Part shown: piece by piece, positions 1,822-52,270 of the stretch | Position numbering within the stretch: the stretch's first letter is position 1 | Layout: every line of letters starts with the position of its first letter | Assembly (NCBI GenBank): GCA_028707065.1 | Contig: JAQTUZ010000005.1 | Location: 3,334-67,333, forward strand | DNA length: 64,000 nucleotides | Direction of reading: 5' to 3' | DNA from: Patescibacteria group bacterium | GTDB lineage: Bacteria; Patescibacteriota; Patescibacteriia; Patescibacteriales; WJLG01 | Program-made: the position numbers and the translations under genes | Notes under the pieces: generated by a model | What the model was told of the DNA's origin: nothing | The model's database searches: none | The model's input: the letters and a program-made list of their open reading frames with translations, nothing else

Positions 1822-1844
1822 AATTTGTATTTTGGGTATATAAT

Positions 1845-1950
1845 GCGAATCTACGAATTGTACGCGAATACTACAAATAGATTTAACGAATTAACGATGG
1901 ATAATTCGTTAAATAGTTCGCGGTATTCGCGAAAAATTCGTAGTATTCGT
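1845..1950. repeat. composite inverted repeat built from CGAATACTACGAA words (family B)
   Basis: Left arm gcgaatctacgaattgtacgcgaatactac, right arm cgcggtattcgcgaaaaattcgtagtattcgt. The central 13-bp hairpin is atttaacgaatta / taattcgttaaat (1881-1914). Confidence 0.75.
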
Positions 1951-1957
1951 ATCATGT

Positions 1958-3691
1958 TTATTGCAATTTTCTAATTCCATACTGAATCAATTCTTGCGTC
2001 TCTGCCAAACTTTGTATTTTGGTCGTGGCGCCGAAATCCACCGCGATCAGCTCCTCCCCGGCAGATCCCGTCACTCTGGTCATTAAATTATATTGGTCCA
2101 GATAGCCGGTTTTGGAGCCGGTGACCTTTAAATTGTTGACGGCGGCAAAAACTCCGTCACGAATGAAATTATTGGTATTAGTCAAAGTATGTTTCTTCTT
2201 GGTATTGATGGTGACAAAGGAATATCTGGGAGCAACACTGATTTTTTGGATCACCGGATTCTTAAATATTTCTCTGATAATTATAGCATACTCGCGGGCA
2301 GTGCTCACGTTAGCGGGCGAAAGGCCGGTCGGTTCGATAAAATGGGTGCTGGTCGCGCCGATCGACGCGACATAGGCATTCATCTCGGCAAAGAAAGCGT
2401 CGCGGGAAAGTCCGGAGACCCTGACCAGGGATTCCACGGCATTATTGGCCGAACCGACCAGAGCGGAGTAAACCAAATCGCCGATCGTCATGGTATCGCC
2501 ATCGTTAACCGATAGCTTGGCCGATTCCGCCGGCAGACAATATTGATAATTATACAATTCATCTTGCTTTTTATAAGTTACCACGGTATTTAAAGAAGGA
2601 TGCTGATCGAAAAAAATTTTAATGGCGACTAGTTTGGATAAGCTGGCCAACGGCAAAACAGCGGAAGAATTCTTTTCCCAGATCACGCCGCCGGTTTTTT
2701 CATCAATGACGATCGCCGCCGCCGCTTTAATATCCGGTTCGGACATCGCTCCTGTTTTAGAAACGCCTAAAATACGCCCATTAGCATCCGGCGCCACATA
2801 AAGCGGCTGAATTCTGATGCTAACGATGCCGCTGCCGGCTTTGGCTATTTTTTTAAAAGCGACTTTATCCAAGTCCAGGATCCGATCGGGAAACTTATCC
2901 CTTTCCGGTCCAAAATCATTGATAGTAACATCGACTGATTTGTTATTGTCGATATTATAGACGCGTAATTTTGAACCCTTGGGGAAATCGATTGAAGCCG
3001 CAAAATTTCCGTTTTTATAAGCATACCAGCTGGCTTTGCCCGCGATCAGCACGGCCGGATCGCTCATCACCGCCACTTGGGCGTAAGGCAAGAAGATCTT
3101 GGCCGCTACTGTTTTTTTTGCCGGATCATCCGTGGTTGGCAATTCGCGCCAGGACTGATAATTTTTATCGTAAAAATAAATTCTTTTATAATACTGGTCG
3201 TTGCTGTTGTAGCTTAGCTTCAAAGTAATCGGCAATTTATTATTGTAAGCCGAATTGTTGCTCAAATCGAATTGATAGGTCGGGCTGATCTTTTCCAATT
3301 TCCACGGAGTCGGTAATTCATCGGTGACCGGCTGCGCTTGGATCTCGGTCGCGCCAATCAAAGATTTAGCCGGAAAAGATACGCTAAAATTATTATCAAC
3401 GGTGGACAAGGCACGCCCCTTGATCGCCGAGCTTGCATCCAGACTGACGCTGACCGCCTCCGTGTTAATCGCCGCGCTAGCGGCGGTTGTCGTAGCCGGC
3501 TGGGCTAGCGGAACGACTTTGGCCTGAGTGGCAAGAGGAACTGATGCGCCGGAAACTCCGCCATCATCAAAAACAATACCATCGGCGGCCAAAGCGGGCA
3601 GCACGCCGAAAGTAAGAAGTAAGAAGAAAGAAGTAAGAAGTAATTTTAATCCTTTAATCATAGCTCTGCTTGTCTTGATTTTATGAAACAT
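1958..3691 (-). CDS. secreted RlpA-like (double-psi beta-barrel) domain fused to serine-type D-Ala-D-Ala carboxypeptidase (peptidase S11)
   Basis: RlpA-like block ASWYAYKNGNFAAS..KLRVYNIDNNKSVDVTINDFGP. S11 motifs SxxK (ASLSK), SxN (GSANNA) and KTG (SKTGYL). The ORF-track start at 3811 reads through the octamer repeat (QPINQSTNQLI). ATG at 3691 (or 3661) gives a signal peptide ending LLTFGVLPALA. Confidence 0.8.
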   Translation of the reverse strand: MFHKIKTSRAMIKGLKLLLTSFFLLLTFGVLPALAADGIVFDDGGVSGASVPLATQAKVVPLAQPATTTAASAAINTEAVSVSLDASSAIKGRALSTVDNNFSVSFPAKSLIGATEIQAQPVTDELPTPWKLEKISPTYQFDLSNNSAYNNKLPITLKLSYNSNDQYYKRIYFYDKNYQSWRELPTTDDPAKKTVAAKIFLPYAQVAVMSDPAVLIAGKASWYAYKNGNFAASIDFPKGSKLRVYNIDNNKSVDVTINDFGPERDKFPDRILDLDKVAFKKIAKAGSGIVSIRIQPLYVAPDANGRILGVSKTGAMSEPDIKAAAAIVIDEKTGGVIWEKNSSAVLPLASLSKLVAIKIFFDQHPSLNTVVTYKKQDELYNYQYCLPAESAKLSVNDGDTMTIGDLVYSALVGSANNAVESLVRVSGLSRDAFFAEMNAYVASIGATSTHFIEPTGLSPANVSTAREYAIIIREIFKNPVIQKISVAPRYSFVTINTKKKHTLTNTNNFIRDGVFAAVNNLKVTGSKTGYLDQYNLMTRVTGSAGEELIAVDFGATTKIQSLAETQELIQYGIRKLQ

Positions 3692-3748
3692 TAATGATAC
3701 TTTAATAATACCAACAATTCGGATAATTGGGAAATAAATTTGCCGGAT

Positions 3749-3897
3749 AATCAGTTGATTGGTTGATTGGTTGATTGGTTGATTGGTCTGCAAATTTTGC
3801 GCTAAAATCAATTAATTTTACAAATCTTTTTAAAATTTTCGAAATCTTTTGTCTCGTAAACCAAGTAACCAATTAACTATTCCACTAATCGACTAAG
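3749..3897. repeat. family A inverted repeat, variant with 4 tandem TTGATTGG octamers
   Basis: Left arm aatcagttgattggttgattggttgattggttgattggtc (3749-3788). Right arm aaaccaagtaaccaattaactattccactaatcgactaag (3858-3897). The core between them is AT-rich. Confidence 0.65.
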
Positions 3898-3996
3898 GCC
3901 GAGATAGCTCAGCTGGTATCCGCGACGTCGCCGCTTTGAAGCGGCGCGCGCGGACCCGCTCACGGCCTTTGGCCGATGTAGCGGGGAGCGACGGTA
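3898..3996 (+). pseudogene. partial duplicate of tRNA-Thr positions 1-32, interrupted by a 67-nt GC-rich two-hairpin insertion
   Basis: 3898-3918 (gccgagatagctcagctggta) and 3986-3996 (gagcgacggta) match the tRNA at 4037 exactly. Nt 3919-3985 form two stem-loops, tccgcg..cgcgga and cccgct..agcggg. No anticodon 3' half, T arm or acceptor 3' strand follows. Confidence 0.4.
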
Positions 3997-4036
3997 ACTT
4001 CGCATAGCGCTTATTAAATCGTAATGTTAAATTCAA

Positions 4037-4109
4037 GCCGAGATAGCTCAGCTGGTAGAGCGACGGTATCGTAAACCGTAGGTCAGGGGTCCGATCCCCC
4101 TTCTCGGCT
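4037..4109 (+). tRNA. tRNA-Thr (anticodon CGU)
   Basis: Manual cloverleaf: acceptor gccgaga/tctcggc, D arm gctc-agctggta-gagc, anticodon arm acggt-aTCGTaa-accgt, T arm agggg-tccgatc-cccct. CCA is not encoded and a T-run follows. The T-loop has C where U55 is normally conserved. Confidence 0.8.
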
Positions 4110-4683: not shown

Positions 4684-4735
4684 AAACCCACCCCGCCTCG
4701 CCGGGCTCGGCACCCCTCCCGGGGAGGGGAATTTT
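4684..4735. repeat. GC-rich double-hairpin REP-like element
   Basis: aaacccaccccgcctcgccgggctcggcacccctcccggggaggggaatttt. It belongs to the same family as 1019-1125 and is nearly identical to 50831-50884. Confidence 0.8.
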
Positions 4736-5276: not shown

Positions 5277-6857
5277 TTATTGTTCCTTGCGGGTTTTGGG
5301 TGTTACCAGGAAACCCATATATTTTCCCAACATCAGGCGGGTTTGCGCGTCCAGCGCCGGAAAGGAACCGAAGAAAATTATTCCCACCGGCAGCAAGAGC
5401 CATTCGAAAACGATCATCACTCTTTTAAAGCGGCTGACCCCCACCGGCCTTCTGGGCATTAAAAGCGAAGAAACGATCGCCGAGATCAGCAAGCCGATCA
5501 TCGATAAGGTCATCAGGGTTTGCGTGACGCCGGGCAAATTGCCCGAAATAACCATGGCATTGAAAGCCTCGCCGCCGAAAAATAACGGCAGCCAACCAAC
5601 CACGCCGATGATCAGGGCGTTAGTCGCCCAGGAATGAAAACCGTAAACTTGGGTGAACATTTTATCCAAGGCGTCGCGCTTGGGCAAATCTTTCCAGCGT
5701 TTGACCGAATTGAAAATTAAATAGGGAATATTTTCCACTCCCCAGCCCCAGCGGCGCTGCTGCTTATACAAACTTTTCATCGTATTCCAGTTGTCTTGAA
5801 CCATAATCGAATCCATGGAGATCGGGAAAAAAATCGGTACGGCTCGATAATCGCCATTATAATGGAAATAGCAATGCCAATAGATCCGGGAATCTTCAGA
5901 AACCATGGTGGTTGACCAAAAACCGATATCGACCAAAGACCGCCAACTCATTGAATGGGAAGAATAAGTGGCCAATTTGTCCGGACGGATCTGCTGCATC
6001 ATCTGCCAAAAAGTATTGCTTGAGGCGGCGACGCGGGAAAAAAACGGCACTTCCCAGACATTATTATGATAGAGCGGAATAGGCTGATAGCTGACGCGAT
6101 AAGGCTTGGTCAACGTCAAAAAGTAATAAGTCAGGCAATGAAAAAAACCGGGATAAACCACCGTGTCGCTGTCGAAAACACTGACCAAAATTTTATCGTA
6201 GGGAATCTTTTCCGGGTCAATCAGTTCTTCCTTGACTTTCCGTCCCGCCCAAGTCTGATTTGCACCCTTGCCTTTTAACTCCCCGACGATCCCGTCAGGA
6301 TGAATGGTTACTAAAAAATTCCGGAATTTTCCGGCAAACTCTTGCTTGAGGATCGCCGCTTTATCCAAACCCTTCTGCCCTTCGCGTTCCTCGATCGCCA
6401 AGACATAAATAATATTTTCCACGGGAAAATGATCGTCAACTATCGACTGAATGCTCGAACGCAAAACTTCAACCGGTTCCACGGCCGTGGGCACGATGAC
6501 CAGGTGAATGACATCCCGATAAGTAAATCCTTTTTTAACCAAGCTGTCAGCCGGCAATTTACCGGCAGTGGCAATATTTAACTCTTCGCATTTGCGGCGC
6601 CAATCCATCGAACGCATTTTTTTCATCTTAAAATACGATGTGAACAGCATTACACCCAGATAAAGCACCAACAGAAGCCAATAGACATCAAAGGCGATGA
6701 TAAAATAAGCCACCCAAACCGGTTGGAAATAAGAAAAGATGATGAGAATCAGCAAAGTCCCCCAGGAAAAAGCGCCGGGAAAAATTTCGAGTATTCGATA
6801 AAATACGCGGTCGCCGCCGGTCAATTCAGTCGCCTTGCCGATTTTTAAATAATCCAT
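5277..6857 (-). CDS. membrane-embedded processive family-2 glycosyltransferase (cellulose/chitin/PNAG-synthase-like)
   Basis: Two N-terminal TMs, GT2 core with the DSD motif (FDSDTVV) and the Q(Q/R)xRW motif (QQRRWGWG), and several C-terminal TMs. Confidence 0.85.
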   Translation of the reverse strand: MDYLKIGKATELTGGDRVFYRILEIFPGAFSWGTLLILIIFSYFQPVWVAYFIIAFDVYWLLLVLYLGVMLFTSYFKMKKMRSMDWRRKCEELNIATAGKLPADSLVKKGFTYRDVIHLVIVPTAVEPVEVLRSSIQSIVDDHFPVENIIYVLAIEEREGQKGLDKAAILKQEFAGKFRNFLVTIHPDGIVGELKGKGANQTWAGRKVKEELIDPEKIPYDKILVSVFDSDTVVYPGFFHCLTYYFLTLTKPYRVSYQPIPLYHNNVWEVPFFSRVAASSNTFWQMMQQIRPDKLATYSSHSMSWRSLVDIGFWSTTMVSEDSRIYWHCYFHYNGDYRAVPIFFPISMDSIMVQDNWNTMKSLYKQQRRWGWGVENIPYLIFNSVKRWKDLPKRDALDKMFTQVYGFHSWATNALIIGVVGWLPLFFGGEAFNAMVISGNLPGVTQTLMTLSMIGLLISAIVSSLLMPRRPVGVSRFKRVMIVFEWLLLPVGIIFFGSFPALDAQTRLMLGKYMGFLVTPKTRKEQ

Positions 6858-6930
6858 TAGTTGATTAGTTAATTGGTTAATTAGTTTGGCTGTATTTTAG
6901 CTTATTTCAATTAATTTTTATTACCTGCTA

Positions 6931-6959
6931 TTGACTTTATTAAAATTTTATGATATATT
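6931..6959 (+). promoter_or_regulatory. sigma-70-like promoter for the small plus-strand gene
   Basis: TTGACT (6931-6936), 17-nt spacer, TATATT (6954-6959), about 70 nt upstream of the ATG at 7030. Confidence 0.55.
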
Positions 6960-7029
6960 AAATTTATTAAACAATAAAATTGCACTTACGCGTTCATTCC
7001 AACTCAATGATTTCTCAAGGAGGTTTTTC

Positions 7030-7296
7030 ATGGATTCTTCCGCTTGCATTTTCTTTATTGCCTTTTCGGGTTTTGGTTTCCTTTGTTCTGTTTTTTATTG
7101 TTGTTATACGATTAAGACCAGAAAACCCGGAGACAACGATATGCTTACGCCAGTTGTAATTTTTATTGGATTAATGTCTTTGTGTATCTGCCTTATGGCC
7201 TATTATAGATACATACAAACATCCAATTTACCTCAATCGGAAATGGCAACAAAACAAACAATTACGGTACCTCTAAAAACGCCGTTGAGGCGATAG
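7030..7296 (+). CDS. small (88 aa) two-TM membrane protein, unknown function
   Basis: AGGAGG (7018-7023) lies 6 nt before the ATG at 7030. It has its own promoter and terminator and two hydrophobic helices (ACIFFIAFSGFGFLCSVFYCCY, VVIFIGLMSLCICLMAYY). The track start at 6931 is a TTG inside the promoter. Confidence 0.6.
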   Translation: MDSSACIFFIAFSGFGFLCSVFYCCYTIKTRKPGDNDMLTPVVIFIGLMSLCICLMAYYRYIQTSNLPQSEMATKQTITVPLKTPLRR

Positions 7297-7320
7297 TGGT
7301 TATCGTTAACCAATCTCGAG

Positions 7321-7350
7321 CGCTCAGGATTTTTTCTTGAGCGTTTTTTT
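7321..7350 (+). terminator. intrinsic terminator of the small plus-strand gene
   Basis: 8-bp stem cgctcagg / cttgagcg (one G-U pair), 7-nt loop, then TTTTTTT (7344-7350). Confidence 0.65.
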
Positions 7351-7492
7351 AAAAACTTTATAGATATCGGTCGAAGTTTATCCTCGTGAAAACAGGAATC
7401 AATATAACACAACAAAAAAAATAAACGCCTGGATTTTCCCGACAACCTATTTCGCAAAAAAACTAAGTACCTAATCGACTAATTAACTAATT

Positions 7493-8163: not shown

Positions 8164-8234
8164 GAAATTAGAAATTGGAAATTTGAAATTAGCATTTTTA
8201 AATCTCCAATTTCTAATTTCCAATTTCAAATTTC
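8164..8234. repeat. intergenic hairpin built from GAAATTN words (family C)
   Basis: gaaattagaaattggaaatttgaaattag (8164-8192) pairs with ctccaatttctaatttccaatttcaaatttc (8203-8233), about 26 of 29 positions complementary. The left arm is C-free and the right arm G-free. Confidence 0.8.
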
Positions 8235-10146: not shown

Positions 10147-10163
10147 GAAAAAAATTATGAAAT

Positions 10164-10258
10164 GTAATACTAATCGCACGAATACATACTAATATAACGA
10201 ATGCTCACTAAAAAATTATTCGTCATATTAGTATGTATTCGTATTAAATTAGTATTAC
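10164..10258. repeat. long near-perfect intergenic hairpin (39-41-nt arms)
   Basis: gtaatactaatcgcacgaatacatactaatataacgaat (10164-10202) against attcgtcatattagtatgtattcgtattaaattagtattac (10218-10258). About 35 of 39 positions are complementary, with a 15-nt loop. Confidence 0.85.
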
Positions 10259-10280
10259 ACCTATCGATTGCCTAAATCAT

Positions 10281-11804
10281 TTAAACAAAAGGCAGGTTTG
10301 GTGGCGGCGCGCCCTTATCTTCTTTAGGCTCTTCCGGCGCGGCTTCGGCGGCCGGCTCTTCCGGTTCGTCGGCTGATTTTTTCTCCACACCGAGCTTGCC
10401 CGCCGTAGCCTTGGCGAAGGCGGGTTCTTCTTGCAATTCGCCCAAAAACAGCGGTTCGGCTTTTTCTTGACTGACTATTTCTTCCGCCTGCGGCAAAGTC
10501 ATCGGCGGTTCGGCTTTGCGGCCGGGTGCCATTTGAATCAGCGGCGCCTTAACCGTGCCCATATTGGGGAAATGCCAGATCGTCGCCAGCTCTTCCACGT
10601 TCAACAAACCGCGTTTCCGGCCGCCAACAGTGTCACGTTTGAGATAGTATTGAAAAATTCTATTTTTTCTGCGCTTAAGATTGCTCTGGCGGAACAAATA
10701 ATTGGCGGTAGTCGCCGTTTTGTCCATATCCGGTTTCAAACCATTGGAATCGATCGCCGCGAACTGTTTCATAAAACCGACAAAACCGCCAAAAACTTTG
10801 GCTTTGTTATACACTTCTTTTTCCGCCAGATACACGAATCTGATCTTGAAATCAAAAGCCACTTTGCCGGATTTTTTCTCAATGCCCTCGACTCTTTTTT
10901 TCTGTTTGGGCTTCAACTGCATCATCTTTAAAACATCATCTTTCTTTTCCACTTTTTTCTCCGCCGCCTCGACCGGCCCCATCACGGCGCTGCCCGCCGC
11001 CGAGATCAATCCCAGCGCGGCATCGGCGCTATAATGCAAAATATTTTTTTTGAATTCGGATTTCTCCCCCAAAATTTTACTGACCTCCTTGTCCAATTCA
11101 TCCATCCAGTCAAACCCGATCGGTATGACGAGCATCTGATACCAAAGATTTTCGCCGGGCTGCAGGCTGGAACAGAGATCCATCAGCGCGGCCATCGGAT
11201 CCTTAAAATGAGTTTCCGGCTCCCCCATGATGTGCTCGAACTCTTCATAAGTTTTGATCGGGTAGGACTTAGGCTGCTGCAGAATGAATTCCGATCCCAT
11301 GATCTCATATTTATCGTTGGGAAATCGAAGATCTTTGAAAGCCGTGACATAATCATCAACTTCGGTTATTTCCGCGTCCGGATATTGGGCATAGACGGCC
11401 GATTCGACCAAATCCCGCTGCGGGATCGGCGTGCGGATCAAGAATTGGGTGTACCCGCCGGTGCTGATGATCTCAAAAGAAAATCCCAGCTGGAATTTTC
11501 CTTCCCAGTATTGTTCCAGCAGGTTGATGGAAGAGTGCGCTCCGGCCAGATAGGCGAATAAATTTTCCACGGCTTTGGGCGATTGCTCGTTGCCGCGCGG
11601 AATATCAATGGCCAAAAGAGTGTATTTGCCGTTCTTGGCCGCGTACTGGTTCTGGCGGTAAAAAATCCACAGTTTAAACGATCCCCAGAGAAAGGTGACG
11701 GCAATCGGAATCCAGCCGAAATAAAAAAGCAGCTGGCCGAGAATGATATCGGGCGATTGGCTGAAAAAATTCAAAAATGGCGTAAAATCGATGACAATAT
11801 TCAT
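10281..11804 (-). CDS. membrane protein of unknown function, partner of the VirD4-like ATPase
   Basis: 507 aa, two N-terminal TMs (ILGQLLFYFGWIPIAVTFLWGSF), a large soluble domain and an acidic/Pro-rich C-terminal tail. It sits immediately upstream of the ATPase on the same strand. I recognise no catalytic motif. Confidence 0.6.
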   Translation of the reverse strand: MNIVIDFTPFLNFFSQSPDIILGQLLFYFGWIPIAVTFLWGSFKLWIFYRQNQYAAKNGKYTLLAIDIPRGNEQSPKAVENLFAYLAGAHSSINLLEQYWEGKFQLGFSFEIISTGGYTQFLIRTPIPQRDLVESAVYAQYPDAEITEVDDYVTAFKDLRFPNDKYEIMGSEFILQQPKSYPIKTYEEFEHIMGEPETHFKDPMAALMDLCSSLQPGENLWYQMLVIPIGFDWMDELDKEVSKILGEKSEFKKNILHYSADAALGLISAAGSAVMGPVEAAEKKVEKKDDVLKMMQLKPKQKKRVEGIEKKSGKVAFDFKIRFVYLAEKEVYNKAKVFGGFVGFMKQFAAIDSNGLKPDMDKTATTANYLFRQSNLKRRKNRIFQYYLKRDTVGGRKRGLLNVEELATIWHFPNMGTVKAPLIQMAPGRKAEPPMTLPQAEEIVSQEKAEPLFLGELQEEPAFAKATAGKLGVEKKSADEPEEPAAEAAPEEPKEDKGAPPPNLPFV

Positions 11805-11870
11805 TAGATAATGCTTATTTCTATTCTACTATTTTAACATTTTTTTTAGCTTTGTTCAAGGAAAAAATGG

Positions 11871-11973
11871 GAATTAGTTGATTAGTTAATTGGTCAATTA
11901 GTTGTATCGTTTTATCAATTCAATAATTTAAGCGCCTCAACTAAGTACCTAATCAACCAATTAACTAATTATC
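11871..11973. repeat. family A inverted-repeat element
   Basis: Left arm gaattagttgattagttaattggtcaattagttgtatcg (11871-11909), 28-nt core, right arm caactaagtacctaatcaaccaattaactaattatc (11938-11973). The right arm overlaps the TAG stop at 11965. Confidence 0.8.
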
Positions 11974-12657
11974 TGCCGCGCAAAATCCCAACTCGCATTT
12001 TAATCCTTGGGACGGGTCGCAATCATAGCCGGCGCCGGAATTTTCATTGCAGCAAGGCTGGTTGCTTTGGCCGCAGCGTTCGCAGGTTTTGCCGGTGAGC
12101 AGCTGGCCGATTAAACATCGATCGCCGGTCGCGCAGGACGGGTTGCCGTCAAAGCCGCAGTTGGCACAAATATTGTTCAAACATTCGGACCGCTCACCGG
12201 TTTTGGGCAAGCAGCTATCACTCGCGCAACAAGGCTCGCCGTTAAGACCGCATTCGGCGCATTTATTATTTTGGCAAACCAATCCGGACGAACAGCTCTC
12301 ACCGTTAGCGCAACAAACCTGATCTTTTTCGCCGCAAGCAAAACAAATGCCCTTGACGCAGACGGCATCGCCATTACAAACATTGCCGGCACAGCAAAAT
12401 TCTTCATTATCGCCGCAGCCGCAATCTTCCGAGCAATAATTGCGGGTGGCGTCATTCGGATCAACGCAGCATTGCTGGCCATAATTGCAGCTGGGCGTGG
12501 TCGCGCAGCATTTCAGCTTGTTAAATCCGCAATCAACGCCTAATAGCACCTGCGGGACTCGGCGGGCGGGCGGCTGATTATTCGTCGCGCAGGCAGGCAG
12601 AATAAGAAGCGAAAATGTCAATAATATTAGCAAGAAAAATCGATAAAATATAGGCAT
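11965..12657 (-). CDS. cysteine-rich tandem-repeat lipoprotein
   Basis: ATG at 12657 gives MPIFYRFFLLILLTFSLLILPAC, a lipobox-like LPAC. This is followed by about six ~30-aa repeats of the type CG-x(3-6)-CC-x(n)-C-x(n)-C (CGEKDQVCCANGESCSSGLVCQNNKC, CGLNGEPCCASDSC..). The track N-terminus MEHENMEH lies in a repeat. Confidence 0.65.
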   Translation of the reverse strand: MPIFYRFFLLILLTFSLLILPACATNNQPPARRVPQVLLGVDCGFNKLKCCATTPSCNYGQQCCVDPNDATRNYCSEDCGCGDNEEFCCAGNVCNGDAVCVKGICFACGEKDQVCCANGESCSSGLVCQNNKCAECGLNGEPCCASDSCLPKTGERSECLNNICANCGFDGNPSCATGDRCLIGQLLTGKTCERCGQSNQPCCNENSGAGYDCDPSQGLKCELGFCAADN

Positions 12658-12678
12658 AAATTTTAGAATTAGAACAAA

Positions 12679-12775
12679 GAGCATGGAACATAGAGCAAAA
12701 TCGGAATCAACGTTAAAAAATCTTTTGTGGCGGGATGTTCCATGCTCCATGTTTTCATGCTCCATGATCCATGAT
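12679..12775. repeat. intergenic inverted repeat built from CATGGAGC words
   Basis: gagcatggaaca (12679-12690) pairs perfectly with tgttccatgctc (12736-12747). Further words ccatgttttcatgctccatgatccatg extend to 12775. Confidence 0.75.
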
Positions 12776-13381: not shown

Positions 13382-13406
13382 GCAATTGGTTAATCAGTTA
13401 ATTAGG
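13381..13406. repeat. solo family A arm
   Basis: ggcaattggttaatcagttaattagg immediately after the stop codon. No obvious partner arm is nearby. Confidence 0.5.
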
Positions 13407-13684: not shown

Positions 13685-13737
13685 ACACACCCCGTCCCGC
13701 CGAGGCGGCGGTCCACCCCTCTCGAGAGGGGAATTTT
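13685..13737. repeat. GC-rich double-hairpin REP-like element
   Basis: acacaccccgtcccgccgaggcggcggtccacccctctcgagaggggaatttt. Hairpin 1 is cgccg/cggcg and hairpin 2 is cccctc/gagggg. Confidence 0.75.
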
Positions 13738-13790: not shown

Positions 13791-15542
13791 TTATTTCAAA
13801 ATTTTCTCCACGTCCTTGATCTCTTTCAAAATCCTCTTGTTGGTGGCGTCGATATGCTCGTATAAAATATTTTTTACCCGGGCCTTGCCTTTGGCGAAAT
13901 CAGCGCGATTCATCTTAACGAGATCATCGATCTCCTCGGAGACGGCGATCTTCAGTTCTTCGATATTTTTCTCCAGCACATCTTCGATCTCCAGAGTTTC
14001 TTTCTTTAATTTCTTGCGCACGAATTCCCAGATCCAGATCAGGAGCGCGACGATCAGAATGATCACCAGGAGGAGGGAGACAAGCACCGTGAAATAATTT
14101 AAGACGAACGAACCGATGCGGGCAAAAATCGGCGCCGTGACCAGAAAACTGACCTTGGCGCTCGGCTTGCTCTTCAAGCCGTTGGGATTGACCGCTTCCA
14201 CCCAGGCCGTATAGCGGCCGTTGGCATAATTCTTGGACGCGACCAGGAACCAATTGCCGTCATTGTCGCTTTTTACACTATTAACTTCGGGTTGAGCTTG
14301 GCCTTCCCCTTGAAGATAAATATTGATCGTATTATTGGGATTGGCCGTGCCGCTGATGAAGAATTTATCGCCGGGTTTTATTTCGGCGGAGTAACTTTTG
14401 ATCACCGGAGTGGCCACGGCGGCAAATTCAAAGGTCAAATTAGCCAAGGTCCCGTTGCCGGCCAGATCAAGCGCCTTGACCGCGATCGCATGCGAACCGA
14501 CTGCCAAGTCGGTCAATTTATAAGAAGTTTTGTCGGCGGTTAAAACAATTGGCTCGGCCGACAAGCTGTCAATCAATATTTCATATTTATCCAAACCTGA
14601 TAACTCGTCAGTGGTCTGGAAATATAAAGTCGGCCAATCATTGGGGTCATCCTGCTTTACCGAAAGCGCGAAGTCTTTAGGCGGCGTGGAATCGATATTC
14701 ACGCGGAAATGCCCGGTCGTCCCCCAGCGCCCCTTATTGTCCTTGACCTTGACGTGAATGTACCAGCTGCCATCGTGGTCCGCGGTATATTGTTTGCTAT
14801 TGAATAAGCCATCGGGCACATTGCCCGGTTCAGTACCGGCTTTTTGATCAAAGGCAACGCTGACGCCGGTCGCGCCATCCGGCAGTTTCCAGGAAAAATC
14901 AGCAGTCTTGGCTTTATACCATTTGGTTTGGTCGGGATGAGTATCGGAAGTGATCACCGGCCGATTGTAAGCGGCCGTTTCCACCGGTGCCGGAGTCGGT
15001 GCCGGAGTCGGTTGGCCCGGGGCCGGTTTTTCAGGAGTCGGCGCTTCTACTTTGGCGGAAATGATAAAACTGGCCGAGCCCAGGCTGGATAAAATATTCG
15101 TGCCCATGCCGTCATTGGCCAAAACATCCCCGGAAGTAAAATTGACCGCGGCCGTTCCCAGCTTGATCGCCTGGAAAGTGATGACGCAGATCGTGCCGCC
15201 ATTGCCGGTATAACCGGGGCGGGGCACGCCGCCGCCGAATCCGATCGTTCCCGCGCCTGATGAAAAAGTCGGTTCTTCGGTCCAAAGGCTGAAAACCGAA
15301 CCCTTGGCGACGCTCAGCACTTTAAGCAGGGATTTATCATAAGTAAGCGACGCCTGCCCGGCATTGATGCTTTGGCCGCCGGTGCTGATCTTTATGGCCA
15401 CGGTGAATTTGCTGTTTAAAATTTTCGTCCCGGTCGAAGGCGAGAGATAAAGCGACGCACCCGCTGCCCAGGCCGGAGTCGCCAAAAACGCGCTGGCAGC
15501 AACTAACCCAACTAAAATTAACGGGAAGAAAAATTTTCTCAT
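13791..15542 (-). CDS. cohesin-like surface protein with C-terminal TM anchor and cytoplasmic coiled coil
   Basis: Signal peptide, cohesin-like domain (about 15047-15464), PT-rich linker PTPEKPAPGQPTPAPTPAP, Ig-like modules, TM FVLNYFTVLVSLLLVIILIVALLIWIW and a charged helical tail. It is a paralog of 40856..42604 with the same length and layout. Confidence 0.7.
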   Translation of the reverse strand: MRKFFFPLILVGLVAASAFLATPAWAAGASLYLSPSTGTKILNSKFTVAIKISTGGQSINAGQASLTYDKSLLKVLSVAKGSVFSLWTEEPTFSSGAGTIGFGGGVPRPGYTGNGGTICVITFQAIKLGTAAVNFTSGDVLANDGMGTNILSSLGSASFIISAKVEAPTPEKPAPGQPTPAPTPAPVETAAYNRPVITSDTHPDQTKWYKAKTADFSWKLPDGATGVSVAFDQKAGTEPGNVPDGLFNSKQYTADHDGSWYIHVKVKDNKGRWGTTGHFRVNIDSTPPKDFALSVKQDDPNDWPTLYFQTTDELSGLDKYEILIDSLSAEPIVLTADKTSYKLTDLAVGSHAIAVKALDLAGNGTLANLTFEFAAVATPVIKSYSAEIKPGDKFFISGTANPNNTINIYLQGEGQAQPEVNSVKSDNDGNWFLVASKNYANGRYTAWVEAVNPNGLKSKPSAKVSFLVTAPIFARIGSFVLNYFTVLVSLLLVIILIVALLIWIWEFVRKKLKKETLEIEDVLEKNIEELKIAVSEEIDDLVKMNRADFAKGKARVKNILYEHIDATNKRILKEIKDVEKILK

Positions 15543-16881: not shown

Positions 16882-16945
16882 AAAAAATATTAAGATTGGA
16901 AATTGAATTTTAAAATTTCTAATTTCCAATTTCTAATTTCTAATT
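16840..16945. repeat. family C (GAAATTT) word repeats forming nested hairpins
   Basis: ggaaatttgaaatttgaaatttgaaattcg (16840-16869) overlaps the first codons of the downstream gene. Its partners are ttggaaattgaatttt/aaaatttctaatttccaa and aatttctaatttctaatt, up to 16945. Confidence 0.7.
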
Positions 16946-20080: not shown

Positions 20081-20102
20081 AAAATTGAAAATTTTGTCAA
20101 CT

Positions 20103-40544: not shown

Positions 40545-40642
40545 AATCCGAACCTACGAAATATCCGAATACTACGAACATCGCCGCAAACCTTTATTCG
40601 GTTCGCGGAATTCGTAGTATTAGAATATAATTCGTAATATTC
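40545..40642. repeat. family B inverted repeat in the 5' leader of giant-1
   Basis: Left arm aatccgaacctacgaaatatccgaatactacgaac. Right arm gttcgcggaattcgtagtattagaatataattcgtaatattc. Confidence 0.7.
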
Positions 40643-40729: not shown

Positions 40730-40738
40730 ATTATATCA
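40730..40738 (-). promoter_or_regulatory. extended -10 promoter (TGATATAAT) for giant-1
   Basis: Minus strand reads ttgtgaTATAAT with TG at -15/-14 and a poor -35 (T-run). It sits just downstream of the terminator at 40752-40791 and about 190 nt upstream of the ATG at 40533. Confidence 0.45.
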
Positions 40739-40751
40739 CAATTTTATCAGC

Positions 40752-40791
40752 AAAAAAAGAACGAAAAGTGGTTAACTTTTCGTTCTTTTTT
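40752..40791. terminator. bidirectional intrinsic terminator after 40856..42604
   Basis: A-run (40752-57), a 12-bp perfect stem agaacgaaaagt / acttttcgttct with loop ggtta (40758-40786), then a T-run (40787-91). Confidence 0.8.
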
Positions 40792-42614: not shown

Positions 42615-42738
42615 AATATCCAATAACCAATATCCAATACTTTAAACAATATTAAAATATAATAATATCTAAAATTTAAATTATTAAAATATTAAATTAT
42701 TTTTTTAAATATTTATTATTTGATATTGGATATTAATT
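42615..42738. repeat. intergenic inverted repeat built from ATATCCAAT words
   Basis: G-free arm aatatccaataaccaatatccaatac (42615-42640). C-free arm ttatttgatattggatattaatt (42716-42738). The loop is very AT-rich. Confidence 0.65.
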
Positions 42739-43212: not shown

Positions 43213-43350
43213 GAAGTTAGAAGTAAGAAGTAAGAATTTTTTTGAATATCTTTAAATATAAAAAATAAAATCCTAATCTTATTATAACACAAAAAAATCA
43301 AACAACAAAATAGCCAAATTTTTCGATATTTCTTACTTCTTACTTCTTGC
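43213..43350. repeat. intergenic inverted repeat built from GAAGTAA words
   Basis: gaagttagaagtaagaagtaagaa (43213-43236) pairs with ttcttacttcttacttcttgc (43330-43350). The loop is 93 nt and AT-rich. Confidence 0.75.
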
Positions 43351-43354
43351 TTTA

Positions 43355-45678: not shown

Positions 45679-45847
45679 GAATTAGTTAACTGGTTAATTA
45701 GTTAATTAGTTTACAACTTAATAAGTTTAGTGATATAAAAAAATTAAAATATTATTTCATGTTTAAAAATAAACAACAGTCTTATTCTTTCTTTATAAAG
45801 TTGTAAAATTGTAGACTAATTAACCGATTAACTAATCAACTAACCGG
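45679..45847. repeat. family A inverted-repeat element with ~100-nt core
   Basis: Arms gaattagttaactggttaattagttaattagtttac (45679-45714) and gactaattaaccgattaactaatcaactaaccgg (45814-45847). The core shares aaaattaaaatattatttcatgttt with the core at 46799-46913. Confidence 0.8.
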
Positions 45848-46764: not shown

Positions 46765-46946
46765 ATTAGTTAATTGGTTGATTGGTTAATTAGTTGTGCA
46801 ATAGAAAATTTTTAAAGGATTTGACTCGGCCAAAAATTTAAAATATTGTTTCATTTTTTAAATCATTAAATTTCGATCGCCATATTTTATTGAACAAAAT
46901 TGATGAACCTGCAGACTAAGTGCCCAATCAACTAATTAACTAATTA
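46765..46946. repeat. family A inverted-repeat element with ~115-nt core
   Basis: Arms attagttaattggttgattggttaattagttgtg (46765-46798) and gactaagtgcccaatcaactaattaactaatta (46914-46946). Confidence 0.8.
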
Positions 46947-48064: not shown

Positions 48065-49078
48065 TTATTTTTTTAAGTTAATCACGTATTTATGGTGGTG
48101 GCGAGGAACGGAGCCGGGTTCGGCTTCAAGCTCATCGCCGTTTTTTTCCATAGGTGAGACTGATCTTTTCTCCTGCCTTTTTTTGTGGATGAACCAGGCC
48201 GCGCCGTAAAGCAATCCCAAAATAATCGCCAATAAAGCGATAAACAAAGCCAGGGGCAAATAGGAAAAGTAAACGATATCGGTCAGATTTTTCCCGTTAT
48301 TCTGGCCGTAATCAAGATTAAGCATGGCCTTGAACTTTCCCGGCCCAAGAGCAAGCTTGCCCGCGGCGGAAAAATCTTTTACTTCGTCGGGAGCAATGGT
48401 GCCGCCGGCGATCGACAGTGAACCGACTTCCTGGCCGCCTTTATTGTAAATGATTATTTCGCCAGTTGGCGCCACCGGCTGATTGCCGATATTTTTTATC
48501 TTTAAAACAAAGCTGATATTGTTTTTCGTAAAAAGAGCGCTCGCCGGCTGGAAGCGGTTAATTTCCGCTTGCTCTACCTGATGCTCGACCAGATCCAGAT
48601 TGATCTGCACTTTCGCGGCGTTCATTTTTTGATCGCTCGCTTGCGCCTCGGGCAGATTGCCGCCGGCGGGAAAAGAAATGATCGCGTGATATTTTCCGGG
48701 CCGGGCGTTAGGGCTGGCGGTGATGCGCAAAGTTTGCGTCGCGGTTTCGCCCGGCGGAATTTCGATCACCGCGCGGTAAAAATCGATCCAGCGAACCAGT
48801 GAGGCATCAGCCGGAAGATCAGACGGATCGCCATAAGGAATTATGCCCGCGGCAGGCGAAAGATCGTTGACTTGCGCGTAAACATCGGCCCGAGCGGCGG
48901 AATTATTTTTAATCGCGATAGTTTCCTCCAGGCAGATTCTCCCCTTTTCGCAAGCGGCCACGTCGATCACCGCCGGCGTAACGCTTAAATCAAAAATGGT
49001 ATCGGCGGAAACGATCGCGGGCGAAAAAAACACCGGCAACAGCAGACTAAAAAATATTAATTTTTGCAATAGGCGCAT
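48065..49078 (-). CDS. DUF916/DUF3324-like (CscA-like) surface protein with C-terminal TM anchor
   Basis: ATG at 49078 (MRLLQKLIFFSLLLPVFFSPAIVSA); the track start at 49087 is a TTG. The layout matches 46947 (IFDLSVTPAVIDV.., KIKNIGNQPVAPTGEIIIYN.., a TM and a basic tail). Confidence 0.5.
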   Translation of the reverse strand: MRLLQKLIFFSLLLPVFFSPAIVSADTIFDLSVTPAVIDVAACEKGRICLEETIAIKNNSAARADVYAQVNDLSPAAGIIPYGDPSDLPADASLVRWIDFYRAVIEIPPGETATQTLRITASPNARPGKYHAIISFPAGGNLPEAQASDQKMNAAKVQINLDLVEHQVEQAEINRFQPASALFTKNNISFVLKIKNIGNQPVAPTGEIIIYNKGGQEVGSLSIAGGTIAPDEVKDFSAAGKLALGPGKFKAMLNLDYGQNNGKNLTDIVYFSYLPLALFIALLAIILGLLYGAAWFIHKKRQEKRSVSPMEKNGDELEAEPGSVPRHHHKYVINLKK

Positions 49079-49089
49079 TTTATTCAAAT

Positions 49090-49230
49090 TGAGGGGAAAA
49101 CCCTTGATGGTCCCGCCGCGGCGGGATCAAGACTCCCTTTTCCAAGGTGCTCGGGTCGCTCCGTTATCCGGCCGACTCTCGCGGTTATTTTATGCCCCGC
49201 AGTTTGCTCGCGGGGAATTATAGATTAAAA
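49090..49230 (-). promoter_or_regulatory. ~145-nt conserved intergenic element, copy 2
   Basis: Aligns with 22725-22870: same TCTATAAT 5' end, same conserved core, and the GC hairpin cccgccgcggcggg flanked by cttgat/atcaag. It ends about 12 nt before the start region of 48065..49078. Confidence 0.4.
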
Positions 49231-49249
49231 ACTATCCGCCGCTAAACAG

Positions 49250-50371
49250 TTAAAATAAAATAAAGTAAAGGATGGCGATCACCGCCGCCGCGATTCCCGA
49301 TAAAATCAAGAAGGTCAGCGCAATTTCATTTTTCTCGCGCGGCGATTTTTTCTTGGTTAAAATTTGTCCGCCCCGCAAGCCCATCTTCTTCAAGGCCGCG
49401 TTGATCGCCATTTTCCGATAAACTCGCAGAAAAATCAGAAAAAGAGTGATCAAAACCAAGAGGCTCGCGCCGACCGAAACGAGTATTTTGACGGGGAAGA
49501 TCCAAAAATACCAAAACATCGTCAGAGTTTTTCGCCCTTCGCCTCCCAATTCGGCGGGCGTGCCGTAACTTAAAACCAGTACTGCCTGATAACGGCCGAA
49601 ACCGAAACTGTCTTTCCAGTTAGCGGCGAACAAACGGGCGCTTTTCGGCAAAATATTTCCCCCCTTGTCGTTAACCGGCAAAACCGCCACCTTGCGGCCC
49701 AGCATATTGCTGATTTCGATCACACCCATGGGCTTGATATGCACGTTGCCCAAATTTTGAATTTTGGCGGAAAAATTCACGGAAAAAGGCGTGGCGTAAA
49801 AAATTTTATCAGTCTTGAATTCGCGGATATCGGCGCGTTCATCGGCAACGCCCTCTATCTGCAATAAAAGCAAAGCTGCCGCCTGTTCGGCCACGCCGAT
49901 CGCGGCGCCCTTTTCCGCCTCGCCCGGTTTGAGTTTCGGCGCTTGGGTGCCAAAAACGATCGCTCCGTAATACCCGCCCGGCCCGACATTGGAAGGAACA
50001 TTGACCGTAAAAGGGATCGCCCGGCCTTGCCCGGGTGAAAGAACAATGCCGTCGGTCGAAATATTTATCCAGGAAGAAATATAATTGCCTGCCTCGGTTC
50101 CGGGCACGATCAATTCCGCTTTGCCGCTTTCATCTTCGGCCGCGGCTTTAAAATCTTTCAAGAAAGCGTAAAAAGTTATCTCTTTATCCGATTGATTGGT
50201 TAAAGTGATCGCGCTAGTAAGCACATCGCCGGGTTTGACCATTTCTTCCAGAATCGATGGCGTGACCTTAATGGTGATTTGATTGGCATCCGCCGCCTTG
50301 GCCGCGCCAAATGGCATTAAAAAACAAATTGCCATTAATCCCCAAATCGCCAATTTTTTTTCCCTTAGCAT
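49250..50371 (-). CDS. DUF916/DUF3324-like (CscA-like) surface protein with C-terminal TMs
   Basis: ATG at 50371 (MLREKKLAIWGLMAICFLMPFGAAKA) is preferred over the TTG at 50425. ITIKVTPSILEEMVKPGDVL.., KIQNLGNVHIKPMGVIEISN..LPKSARLF..YQAVLVLSYG, and C-terminal TMs. Confidence 0.5.
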   Translation of the reverse strand: MLREKKLAIWGLMAICFLMPFGAAKAADANQITIKVTPSILEEMVKPGDVLTSAITLTNQSDKEITFYAFLKDFKAAAEDESGKAELIVPGTEAGNYISSWINISTDGIVLSPGQGRAIPFTVNVPSNVGPGGYYGAIVFGTQAPKLKPGEAEKGAAIGVAEQAAALLLLQIEGVADERADIREFKTDKIFYATPFSVNFSAKIQNLGNVHIKPMGVIEISNMLGRKVAVLPVNDKGGNILPKSARLFAANWKDSFGFGRYQAVLVLSYGTPAELGGEGRKTLTMFWYFWIFPVKILVSVGASLLVLITLFLIFLRVYRKMAINAALKKMGLRGGQILTKKKSPREKNEIALTFLILSGIAAAVIAILYFILF

Positions 50372-50830: not shown

Positions 50831-50884
50831 TATACCCTCCCCGCCTCGCCGGGCTCGGCACCCCTCCCGAGGAGGGGACAAACA
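50831..50884. repeat. GC-rich double-hairpin REP-like element
   Basis: ataccctccccgcctcgccgggctcggcacccctcccgaggaggggacaaac, near-identical to 4684-4735. Confidence 0.8.
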
Positions 50885-50933
50885 AAAAAACCGCCGGTGT
50901 TCAACCAGCGATTTTATTTTTTGATAAAATATT

Positions 50934-51980
50934 TTAGTAGGTCGGCGTGCAGATGTAAGTCAGCGTACTGGCGTAATCGCCGGCTTCCTGCAGGGCGCTG
51001 ATCTCGATGGAATAAGCCACCGTTGACGAGCCGATGCCGGTAGTTAAACCATCAGAAGGGCCGTTATGATACATGACTTCAACCGGAGTCGTGTGCCAAA
51101 AACCTTTGTAAAGCGAGCCGGCGAAAGGATTGCCGTCGCTTAAAACCGTATCGCCGCTGGTCAGGCCAAGATGGCCGTAAGTGTGGGCATTGCCCAAAAC
51201 ACCGGTCGGCGGCGCCCAGGCCAAGGGCGTGGTGGAGGCGGCCGCGCCGTCTCTGAATGAATCGATATCGGCGCCATTGCTGGCTAGCAAATTATGATCC
51301 TGCTCGACCGTGACCGTATAGCCATAATTGGCGTTAGTGGTGACATTCAATTTCTGGCACATGGTCTTTTCGACTCCCGGAGTAAGAACTCCGAAAGCTA
51401 AAGTATTAAAAGTCGAGGAGGCGGTGCAGGGAACGCCGTTAACCGAAGTGGAAGTGGTCGAGGCTATGCCGGTAATCGTAAAAGTCAAGGAAGCTTCGAC
51501 AGTCGCGGTTACGGCCACGCTGTTGACGATCGCCACGCGGAAAGTGGAATGCTCGATCAGCGCTCCGCCGCTGGCCTTAGTATTAATGGTGATCAACTGG
51601 CTGCCGACCGTGGCCGGATTGGTAGTCCCGCTCAAAGTGATCGTGTAAAGGCCGACGGCCAGACCTCCCGTATAAGCGCAAGTTACGGTGTTGCCGGTTC
51701 CACCCTCGTCTCCCGCGTTGGGACAGATTAAATTACCCGACGAAATATCAGTGAAAGCCGCGGGAAAAATTATTTCAATATAGCCGTTAGCGCCGATCGC
51801 CTGGGTGGTCGAAGCGACGATCGTGTGCGTGACGTTGGCCTCCAATACATCGGAACTGGAAATCGTATCTTTGACACTCTCCATTGATATCGCGTTAGTG
51901 ACCCGGGGAACCGAACCATACATCAACAGCATGCTGAGCATGAGCAATCCGATGATAAATTTTCGTCTTGAAATTTTCAT
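50934..51980 (-). CDS. secreted protein with WxL-like C-terminal domain shared with giant-2
   Basis: Signal peptide. The C-terminal ~190 aa align with the giant-2 tail: SLTFTITGI/SLTLTVAGL, LAFGVLTPG/VPFGVLAPD, NANYGYTVTV/NAEWGYSLYA, and ending AGDYASTLTYICTPTY/AGDYSTNIVYILVPTY. Confidence 0.55.
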   Translation of the reverse strand: MKISRRKFIIGLLMLSMLLMYGSVPRVTNAISMESVKDTISSSDVLEANVTHTIVASTTQAIGANGYIEIIFPAAFTDISSGNLICPNAGDEGGTGNTVTCAYTGGLAVGLYTITLSGTTNPATVGSQLITINTKASGGALIEHSTFRVAIVNSVAVTATVEASLTFTITGIASTTSTSVNGVPCTASSTFNTLAFGVLTPGVEKTMCQKLNVTTNANYGYTVTVEQDHNLLASNGADIDSFRDGAAASTTPLAWAPPTGVLGNAHTYGHLGLTSGDTVLSDGNPFAGSLYKGFWHTTPVEVMYHNGPSDGLTTGIGSSTVAYSIEISALQEAGDYASTLTYICTPTY

Positions 51981-52111
51981 ATTTTTTTTCTTGCCTTACC
52001 AGCCGACCGTCGGGAAATAATTATTTATAAATACTTTAAAAATAGCCTCCTATTCCGCTTAAGCGATAGCTTGCTTAGGACGCGTTCAGAATAATTTTAT
52101 CTCCTCGTTTT

Positions 52112-52120
52112 ATTATACCA
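52112..52120 (-). promoter_or_regulatory. extended -10 promoter (TGGTATAAT) upstream of 50934..51980
   Basis: Minus strand reads TTATAA, 17-nt spacer with TG, then TATAAT. A second TATAAT lies 22 nt further upstream. The leader to the ATG at 51980 is about 125 nt. Confidence 0.45.
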
Positions 52121-52201
52121 TAATTCAGTTTAAATTATAACCCCCTGTCTATCTTTATTAGCCTATTGACCTTTTAATATCTTTTCCCTTTAATTTTGGC
52201 T

Positions 52202-52258
52202 AAAAAAAGAATGAATAAGCTCAAAATTAGAAATTTGAAATTCGAAATTTGCTTGAGC
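52202..52258 (-). terminator. weak terminator candidate after giant-2
   Basis: Stem gctcaa (52219-24)/ttgagc (52253-58) encloses GAAATTT words. The U-run (plus aaaaaaa 52202-08) lies 10 nt away from the stem. Confidence 0.3.
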
Positions 52259-52270
52259 CTGTGGATAAAC

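Follow-up and report, generated by a model that had tools for sequence, protein, structure and literature searches.

The window analysed here, a 64-kb stretch of the genome of a Patescibacteria group bacterium (contig JAQTUZ010000005.1), carries nearly all of its genes on the − strand. Pfam matches among its proteins include a type IV coupling protein of the TrwB/VirD4 type (T4CP), which carries a CxxC zinc ribbon, DUF1361, FtsE/FtsX, HSP20 and cohesin/dockerin/Big_13 surface proteins; two giant ORFs, also on the − strand, occupy 28105-40533 (4142 aa) and 52271-63967 (at least 3898 aa). In a species-level genome set, relatives of the T4CP were found only in Patescibacteria (Parcubacteria- or Falkowbacteria-like metagenome-assembled genomes), at no more than 82% identity. 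The coding DNA has a G+C content of about 45-54%, versus 9-35% for the spacers, and it is these spacers that concern us. About half to two-thirds of them carry a long inverted repeat whose typical arm consists of 3-5 tandem copies of an AT-rich word of 7 or 8 nt, the two arrays being inverted relative to each other. These hairpins are genuine intergenic repeats, enriched in one Patescibacteria clade, that bracket non-coding spacers, and we show that the complementarity of their arms is maintained while the word sequence is replaced between sister genomes.

Repeats were detected with a general repeat finder, with Tandem Repeats Finder (TRF) and with our own seed-and-extend scan, and the structures described below were recovered by all three. 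A preliminary description of the window had named a series of tandem words, and TRF returned them, with periods of 7 and 8. Each of the 30 spacers of at least 60 nt was compared with 200 dinucleotide shuffles of itself for its best gapless inverted repeat; p was ≤0.01 in 15 spacers (0.3 expected) and ≤0.05 in 17 (1.5 expected), and the count rises to about 19-20 of the 30 if the pairs 6856-6886/7461-7492, 16841-16933 and 3753/3859 are included. Inverted repeats thus exceed chance, but the preliminary statement that nearly every spacer has one was too generous, the strict share being 15-17 of 30. Folding with RNAfold agrees: spacers had a mean z of −3.2 (− strand) and −2.9 (+ strand), versus −0.06 ± 1.1 for coding controls, and single hairpins reach −27 to −50 kcal/mol, with z between −4 and −12. 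Eighteen of the 20 repeats of the whole window are intergenic, although intergenic DNA makes up only about 9% of it. The Rfam scan of the whole window returned a single entry above gathering thresholds, a tRNA.

Among the 22 strict word hairpins of the clade the period is 7 in 11 and 8 in 10; stems measure 18-45 bp at 12-35% G+C and loops 5-140 nt. Three examples previously checked by eye hold up. The one at 8164 comprises 27 nt (8164-8190/8208-8234) at 93% complementarity; the one at 10164 belongs to a stem of about 42 bp at 10160-10262 (−50.2 kcal/mol, z −11.7); and the 12/12 match of 12679-12690 with 12736-12747 is part of a 27-nt repeat with 81% match. It had also been proposed that most families pair a C-free with a G-free arm and that an arm of this kind cannot fold on itself. 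Such pairs are present, but in only 11 of the 22 hairpins, so that the second idea, reasonable as it is, applies to half of them; moreover the property is largely arithmetic, following from the repetition of an AT-rich 7-8-nt word with a single G or C.

For comparison between genomes we used eight syntenic loci (L081-L088) from about seven sister genomes, found through homologues of the T4CP and the FGE-sulfatase. L081-L085 are syntenic with window positions 92-21866 and L086-L088 with about 40-52 kb, their anchor proteins being 75-87% identical to those of the window. At the T4CP/DUF1361 junction the word is GAAATTN in the window, AGAACAN in L081, L082 and L084, and AATTAGTT in L083, with no hairpin in L085; that is, three word families over five of six genomes. 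At the dock615/HSP20 junction each of the four genomes has a word of its own: GAAGTAA (window), AAGAGAT (L086), AATTAAG (L087) and AATTAAAAATTGAT (L088). Yet in all four the 5′ arm lies just past the stop codon and is complementary to its own 3′ arm, the 3′ arm ends 9-21 nt before the HSP20 ATG, and the loop contains the conserved sequence TGTGTTATAAT. A swap control over eight junctions gave an arm complementarity of 12.3 within genomes versus 8.2 between genomes (Mann-Whitney p = 6e-6), high between-genome scores occurring mainly where the genomes share a word family. Each locus and each genome may use another word, yet the arms still pair, which argues for a constraint on pairing. A single sequence-specific reader protein does not suit this pattern, and the earlier suggestion of protein-binding arrays loses ground accordingly. 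A metagenome-wide scan with the conserved HSP20 start ATGTCTTTTTTAAGCAARATAAA, intended to enlarge the covariation set, returned two unrelated contigs only.

The hairpins and arrays of the window are as follows.

1851-1943: non-tandem inverted repeat of the CGAATAC type in the S11/ABC spacer (shuffle p 0.005)
3753-3787 and 3859-3893: arms of a AATTGGTT/AACCAATC hairpin; the conserved S11 peptidase promoter lies downstream of it
6856-6886 and 7461-7492: arms of the AATTAGTT family that enclose an entire + strand ORF (6931-7296) plus its terminator
8164-8234: hairpin of the GAAATTN heptamer filling the spacer from the T4CP stop (8239) to the DUF1361 start (8152); 27-bp stem, −27.1 kcal/mol, z −7.4
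10160-10262: near-perfect hairpin of about 42 bp, of the TACGAATAC/TACTAAT type and not strictly tandem, between the DUF8128 stop and the true T4CP start (10146)
11868-11970: AATTAGTT hairpin directly 3′ of the 230-aa gene's stop codon; next come a T6 run and a conserved promoter, TTGAAC (11854-11859)-N17-TGTTAAAAT (11831-11839)
12665-12761: hairpin of the AGAGCAT/AGAACAT type (CATGGAGC family) in a divergent spacer, in the 5′ leader of the 230-aa gene (z −4.0)
15560-15713: C-type hairpin of AAATCCAAA/TTTGGATTT words (shuffle p 0.005)
16841-16945: GAAATTN hairpin; read in sense, the stop of a 445-aa gene comes before the 5′ arm, the loop holds a start codon (16881), and the 3′ arm (16841-16867) is probably coding
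18355-18488: C-type hairpin of AAATCCGAAA words, grouped with the AAATCCAAA family; 90-nt loop (shuffle p 0.015)
22065-22094: orphan array of 4.3 copies of TTTTTAC adjoining a stop codon, with no inverted partner (shuffle p 1.0)
24807-24911: AATTAGTT hairpin 3′ of the ABC2 stop
26240-26317: hairpin of AGTTAAAAG/CTTTTAACT words filling the PAP/ABC2 spacer (shuffle p 0.01, z −2.8)
27994-28103: AATTAGTT hairpin with a 31-bp stem, beginning 1 nt past the stop of the 4142-aa gene (−40.1 kcal/mol, z −8.6); downstream of it, at the giant1/PAP junction, an extended −10 TGATATAAT (27957-27965)
40561-40628: CGAATACTAC-type hairpin, less periodic and CGAATAC-like, conserved in L086 and situated in the 4142-aa gene's 5′ leader; upstream of it a canonical terminator (40753-40791) and a promoter TGTGATATAAT (40730-40740)
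42615-42734: C-type hairpin of AATATCC words filling the HSP20/cohesin-protein spacer
43213-43352: GAAGTAA hairpin (18/18), the 5′ arm 7 nt past the dockerin-protein stop and the 3′ arm ending 21 nt before the HSP20 start; in its loop the conserved extended −10 TGTGTTATAAT (43281-43291, − strand)
45680-45843: AATTAGTT hairpin filling the FGE/g158 spacer (shuffle p 0.005)
46765-46946: AATTAGTT hairpin with a 138-nt loop, beginning 2 nt past the upstream stop and ending 11 nt before the FGE start
52224-52251: orphan GAAATTN array just 3′ of the stop of the 3898-aa gene, with an extended −10 TGGTATAAT at 52112-52120

By word, the AATTAGTT/AATTGGTT family accounts for the structures at 3753, 6856/7461, 11868, 24807, 27994, 45680 and 46765, and GAAATTN for those at 8164, 16841 and 52224; the less periodic CGAATAC type is found at 1851, 10160 and 40561, and AAATCCA is also among the words of the window.

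The arms keep close to the ends of genes. Relative to the stop codon the 5′ arms have their first letter at −3 to +15 nt, and the 3′ arms fall into two classes. Those of the first end 4-21 nt before a start codon, with no intervening promoter at T4CP/DUF1361, FGE/g158 and Cpn10/Cpn60 (the last in L084); this class includes the cases with a promoter in the loop, at HSP20 (43281-43291) and g348 (52112-52120). Those of the second end at least 60 nt before the start, with a promoter between (230/DUF8128; giant1/PAP). Long loops contain seven extended −10 boxes in the sense direction and none in antisense; plain −10-like hexamers in the loops show no orientation bias (50 versus 45), and a consensus promoter/terminator scan stayed near shuffle expectation, though it did confirm a few sites. 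In the clade (the window plus L081-L088) a Shine-Dalgarno sequence precedes 16 of 130 starts, and most leaders are A/T-rich and G-poor, which suggests that translation is initiated mainly without Shine-Dalgarno pairing; next to hairpins the count is 1 of 35 starts, versus 15 of 76 other starts. The G-poor arm is the 3′ arm, nearer the downstream start, in 17 of the 22 strict hairpins (p = 0.017). A T tail (at least 5 T in the 8 nt past the stem) follows 4 of these 22, which bears out the preliminary remark that most lack a U-run.

Orthologous junctions also tell something of how the hairpins change. At FGE/g158 L087 and L088 have a single ATTAG/CTAAT pair at the place where 3-4 words stand in the window and in L086; the single-word version at the orthologous site indicates that arrays grow in situ. 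At 230/DUF8128 the hairpin of L083 (8166-8261, 96 nt, arms and loop) is the reverse complement of that at 11868-11970 in the window (alignment score 69 inverted versus 38 direct), and the flanking stop codon, T run and promoter have not moved. Such a flip in situ shows that the arms interact at the DNA level, through recombination or template switching. Loop inversions were sought at ten other orthologous hairpin pairs and none was found. At the junction of L085 equivalent to 6856-7492 the arms are the same and the enclosed cargo is different.

A strict filter found 11 word hairpins in the 64-kb window versus 19 in 1.38 Mb from 80 more distant loci of the Candidate Phyla Radiation (CPR), a difference of about 12-fold. 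The same architecture does occur in some of these distant lineages (L022, L044, L075 and L078), built from their own words and filling gaps from gene end to gene start. In L078 we also noticed near-perfect 19-nt palindromes with 2-nt loops (CAACCGTGAATAGTGACCG/CGGTCACTATTCACGGTTG) just 3′ of several genes (10600-10639, 12399-12436, 14199-14238 and 16092-16133). The AATTAGTT family, with more than eight copies in the 64 kb, in both orientations, and a common inner motif, GGTACTTAGTTG, is restricted together with that motif to the window, L083/L086 and L085. Spacer-versus-spacer blastn showed similarity confined to the arms, the loops being otherwise unrelated, with one exceptional pair: 27994-28103 and 24807-24911 are 75% identical over 110 nt, arms and loop, in inverted orientation.

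Literature searches turned up no description of such repeats in Patescibacteria/CPR. The closest analogue is the short tandemly repeated repetitive element (STRR) of cyanobacteria, which likewise consists of tandem 7-nt words in intergenic DNA, with several word families per genome and inverted arrays capable of forming hairpins. STRR hairpins lie between the co-transcribed hupS and hupL or after gene ends; their function is unknown, and transcript stability, translational coupling and termination have been proposed (PMC2670836). The present hairpins share with STRR the intergenic tandem unit of about 7 nt and the foldable inverted arrays, but neither the words (CCCCAGT, TTGGTCA, CAACAGT) nor the phylum of the host, and are an analogue of STRR rather than a member. 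They differ further in that 8-nt words are as common as 7-nt ones, that the arms bracket the whole spacer, touching stop and start, and that some junctions have a promoter within the loop. The replacement of words with retained pairing, shown here between sister genomes, was not found reported for STRR. New, then, are the lineage that hosts the repeats, the bracketing from stop to start, the junctions with a promoter in the loop and the arms that co-vary between sister genomes. TAACTGA heptamers of Beggiatoaceae and cyanobacteria also lie in spacers, often ending a few nt before starts, and post-transcriptional roles have been proposed for them; there a single word is used genome-wide, in 169 direct sets versus 1 inverted (PMC4679880). 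Here, by contrast, many words are used, mostly in inverted pairs.

Other systems resemble the hairpins in part. Repetitive extragenic palindromic (REP) elements of Proteobacteria, with their composite forms BIME (bacterial interspersed mosaic element) and REPIN (REP doublet forming a hairpin), are dispersed intergenic repeats just after stop codons, often in inverted pairs forming long hairpins, and their families turn over between related genomes. REP elements are imperfect G/C-rich palindromes of about 20-40 nt, mobilised by RAYT (REP-associated tyrosine transposase) proteins and credited with mRNA 3′-end stabilisation and weak termination. The likeness lies in the position after stops, the inverted pairs and the family turnover, and the difference in that our hairpins are made of tandem short words with mostly unrelated loops. 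As to a REPIN-type doublet, the AATTAGTT family has more than eight copies and a shared inner motif, with a common loop in one pair only. Chloroplast 3′ inverted repeats and the intercistronic RNase III sites of phage T7 are stem-loops that serve as processing or stability signals and are not efficient terminators; they share the intercistronic place, but lack tandem words, and processing in our case is putative. Small inversions of hairpin loops between inverted repeats are common in plastid non-coding DNA. Under the Mimivirus ‘hairpin rule’ nearly every gene has at its 3′ end an AT-rich palindrome, which marks a polyadenylation site. There too the hairpins follow almost gene by gene, are AT-rich and variable in sequence and are defined by structure, but the virus is eukaryotic and its hairpins have neither tandem words nor a promoter in the loop. 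CRISPR arrays can be dismissed, the units here being contiguous 7-8-nt words in inverted pairs rather than 24-48-nt direct repeats with unique spacers.

The hairpins, we infer, act in RNA. Our best reading, held tentatively and somewhat short of an even chance, is that at gene boundaries they form stem-loops with a part in processing, stability or insulation, and that slippage together with copying between arms generates and renews them. Their position is that of the intercistronic stem-loops which serve processing or stability in plastids, in phage T7 and in REP-bearing operons. Where both arms lie on one transcript (in operon-internal spacers, in read-through from the upstream gene, or in 5′ leaders), they would form an A/U-rich helix of 18-45 bp. 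This predicted length would suffice for RNase III, whose sites have at least about 20 bp of almost unbroken double-stranded RNA, and the helix would also block 3′ exonucleases, thereby defining and stabilising the end of the upstream message. With the helix ending 4-21 nt upstream of a start that has no Shine-Dalgarno sequence, most of the usually G-free leader would be paired. Where the promoter lies in the loop, as at HSP20 and g348, the gene's own transcripts would carry only the 3′ arm and stay unstructured, and read-through transcripts would fold; an arm pair around a loop promoter would in this way insulate adjacent transcription units. The arrays themselves may arise and turn over in situ by slippage, giving concerted evolution of the words, with arm-to-arm copying keeping the arms matched and now and then flipping a hairpin. 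Processing, stabilising or insulating hairpins had been among the roles suggested beforehand; gene-boundary location, helices of 18-45 bp and the rarity of T tails do fit these roles better than classical terminators, the action in RNA being the part that stays putative.

A more specific version is that of a split hairpin, which would insulate genes in these Shine-Dalgarno-poor CPR genomes: gene A would carry the 5′ arm at its 3′ end, and gene B would have the 3′ arm as its G-free leader and its promoter in the loop. We regard this version as unlikely. Transcripts from the B promoter would not contain the 5′ arm and would stay translatable, and read-through from A would snap into a helix and then be cut, terminated or silenced. 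Tandem words free of one letter would keep the arms single-stranded, and pairing in any register would allow fast long-range folding. In operon-internal spacers the helix would couple the translation of B to the termination of A. Circularisation of mRNA, with the 3′ arm upstream of a gene pairing with the 5′ arm downstream of that gene, was set aside; by eye it fits only FGE and the ORF at 6931-7296.

Several observations weigh against an RNA role. First, the two strands are equivalent: mismatches are G·U in 32 cases versus A·C in 29, and folding energies in sense and antisense differ by a median of 0. With no strand asymmetry, selection for RNA in the sense direction is not demonstrated, and arm complementarity could persist through DNA-level copy correction without selection. 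Second, the hairpins are dispensable, at least at DUF8128/T4CP, where the 42-bp hairpin of the window is replaced by a spacer of 4 nt in L082 and of 18 nt in L085. Third, T tails are rare, and the coexistence of canonical terminators in the genome (20061-20080 and 40753-40791 in the window) implies that the hairpins are not required for termination as such. Fourth, divergent and convergent spacers contain hairpins too, and some arrays have no inverted partner (13384-13406, 22065-22094, 52224-52251 and the coding array 3610-3643). Finally, loops of 50-140 nt fold slowly.

These points make a non-adaptive origin a serious rival, one that we consider possible though doubtful. The hairpins would then be self-renewing repeats, born by slippage in AT-rich spacers under poor repair, with arms copied by intrastrand template switching (quasi-palindrome correction) or recombination; some families would have spread in the manner of REPINs or MITEs (miniature inverted-repeat transposable elements), all being tolerated outside genes and any RNA effect being incidental. 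Besides the equal folding of both strands, this agrees with the hairpin flipped in situ between the window and L083, with the variation in presence and word family between close relatives at the same junction, and with the orphan arrays and those that extend into coding N-termini. Copying at the DNA level is shown by the flip and by the dispersed AATTAGTT family. Spread between spacers is suggested by the copies of that family with their common GGTACTTAGTTG and by the pair alike in arms and loop, but the loops of the paralogous copies are otherwise unrelated, and neither target-site duplications nor a transposase was seen in the DNA examined. In particular, none of the 30 window proteins scanned (64 kb of the genome) matched a transposase, and no RAYT-like gene was seen in the DNA examined. 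A MITE in the strict sense can be rejected, because inspection found no duplications flanking the arms and orthologous ‘empty’ sites hold the single-word version, which speaks for growth in situ rather than insertion. Against a purely neutral process stand the repeated occupation of the same junctions across genomes, with arms hugging stops and starts, the constant orientation of the loop promoters, and the bias of 17 to 5 for a G-poor 3′ arm.

DNA-level functions and plain terminators fit less well than either RNA stem-loops or non-adaptive repeats. The hairpins might serve in DNA as protein-binding sites, as insulators that absorb supercoiling by cruciform extrusion, or as inverton-like elements that invert a promoter loop, all of which we think improbable. 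The inverted repeats do flank a promoter, with a conserved extended −10, at HSP20 and g348; strand symmetry is perfect, one inversion in situ was observed, and many adjacent genes encode surface proteins. However, words that vary by spacer and by genome would be unreadable for a single DNA-binding protein or site-specific recombinase, and cruciform extrusion is disfavoured by loops of 50-140 nt. Among the genomes compared the hairpins do not behave as invertons: the promoter loops have one orientation in all four, arm words differ between loci, and the one loop that has flipped is without a promoter. The window contains no recombinase gene; one recombinase/resolvase pair lies at the edge of L083.

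Similarly small is the chance that the hairpins are the Rho-independent terminators of this lineage, with long A/U-rich in place of short G/C-rich stems. They do begin immediately past stop codons, a T run and then a promoter come next in some cases (230/DUF8128, giant1/PAP), and their inverted symmetry would make them bidirectional, as convergent spacers need. At the junction upstream of DUF8128, furthermore, a canonical GC-stem/T-run terminator in L084 takes the place of the word hairpin plus T run of the window, L081 and L083; L082 has there a T run and, in the same word family, an array resembling a hairpin that the repeat finder missed. Yet the class of canonical intrinsic terminators, with short G/C-rich stems and loops of 3-8 nt, does not accommodate such long stems of low G+C and loops of up to 140 nt with so few T tails. 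Many hairpins lie inside obvious operons, right before a start and with no promoter between (T4CP/DUF1361, and Cpn10/Cpn60 in L084), and some lie in 5′ leaders (12665-12761, 40561-40628). Canonical terminators moreover coexist with them, even within a loop: in the convergent 577/175 spacers of L081 and L082 the hairpin arms enclose a canonical bidirectional terminator.

Patescibacteria/CPR are a large and almost uncultured share of the bacteria, whose gene expression is largely uncharted. That one clade, and patchily other CPR lineages, punctuate gene boundaries with hairpins of preserved pairing and replaced sequence provides a structural signal that can be searched for in metatranscriptomes, and a way into the structure of their operons, their mRNA processing and their initiation without Shine-Dalgarno sequences. 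It also offers a second, independent system for a question that is 35 years old, that of the role of STRR hairpins in cyanobacteria.

The arrays also affect annotation. The preliminary description regarded three N-terminal peptides as false extensions read from the repeats, and for two of them homologue lengths agree. Homologues of the S11 peptidase have 561-569 aa, versus 617 aa for the window ORF, QPINQSTNQLI being the − strand reading of an arm of 3753-3893; those of the ‘230’ protein have 229-230 aa, versus a 266-aa ORF, so that the true start is at about 12657 and MEHENMEH is read from the hairpin 12665-12761. The third, ISNFKFQIS, is probably real coding sequence translated from the 3′ arm 16841-16867: the start at 16881 gives 363 aa, matching homologues, and the homologue in L083 begins MLISNFKFQIF. 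The true T4CP start (10146) is based on the 635 aa of protein P0001. Another array, 4.9 copies of CTTACTT at 3610-3643, is coding as well and supplies the signal-peptide core LLLTSFFLLLTF. Short-word arrays enter the coding N-termini (signal-peptide region) of secreted proteins at 3610-3643 and 16841-16867 in the window, at 3644-3720 in L081 and at 3098-3140 in L083; the repeat unit of these translated arrays is not a multiple of three, and the N-terminal peptides diverge strongly among orthologues. Besides inflating ORF calls through false N-terminal extensions, the arrays are a likely cause of assembly and annotation errors in metagenome-assembled CPR genomes.

Other repeated elements are present in the window. 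A separate G/C-rich REP-like element, CCCGTCCGCCCGGGGCGGACACCCCTCCTGGGGAGGGG, with two small G/C palindromes, occurs at 1018-1125, 4692-4735, about 13690-13735 and about 50835-50880, and in relatives at 18470-18560 (L081), 17771-17848 (L082), 20001-20100 (L084), and 12640-12760 and 18933-18970 (L085); once it forms two tandem 55-nt copies, and the junctions that it occupies differ in relatives. In the giant ORFs, identical short TRF matches at 60984/62439 and 61268/62723 hint at an internal repeat on the 4-kb scale, and equivalent genes of relatives carry DUF2341/Laminin_G_3/fn3 domains.

A G/C-rich element of about 150 nt is present in two copies that are 80% identical (22714-22871 and 49088-49249). 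On the − strand it begins past a −10-like TCTATAAT and ends at the start codons 22713 and 49087, which makes it a candidate 5′-leader regulatory RNA; an Rfam E-value scan of 49070-49260 gave no family and only a chance-level RsmY match (E 0.049). Lastly, a truncated copy of a tRNA 5′ half (GCCGAGATAGCTCAGCTGGTA...) lies about 120 nt from the intact tRNA (3893-3950 and 4037-4109), and in L083 the tRNA region (14912-15457) is rearranged and carries extra inverted repeats.

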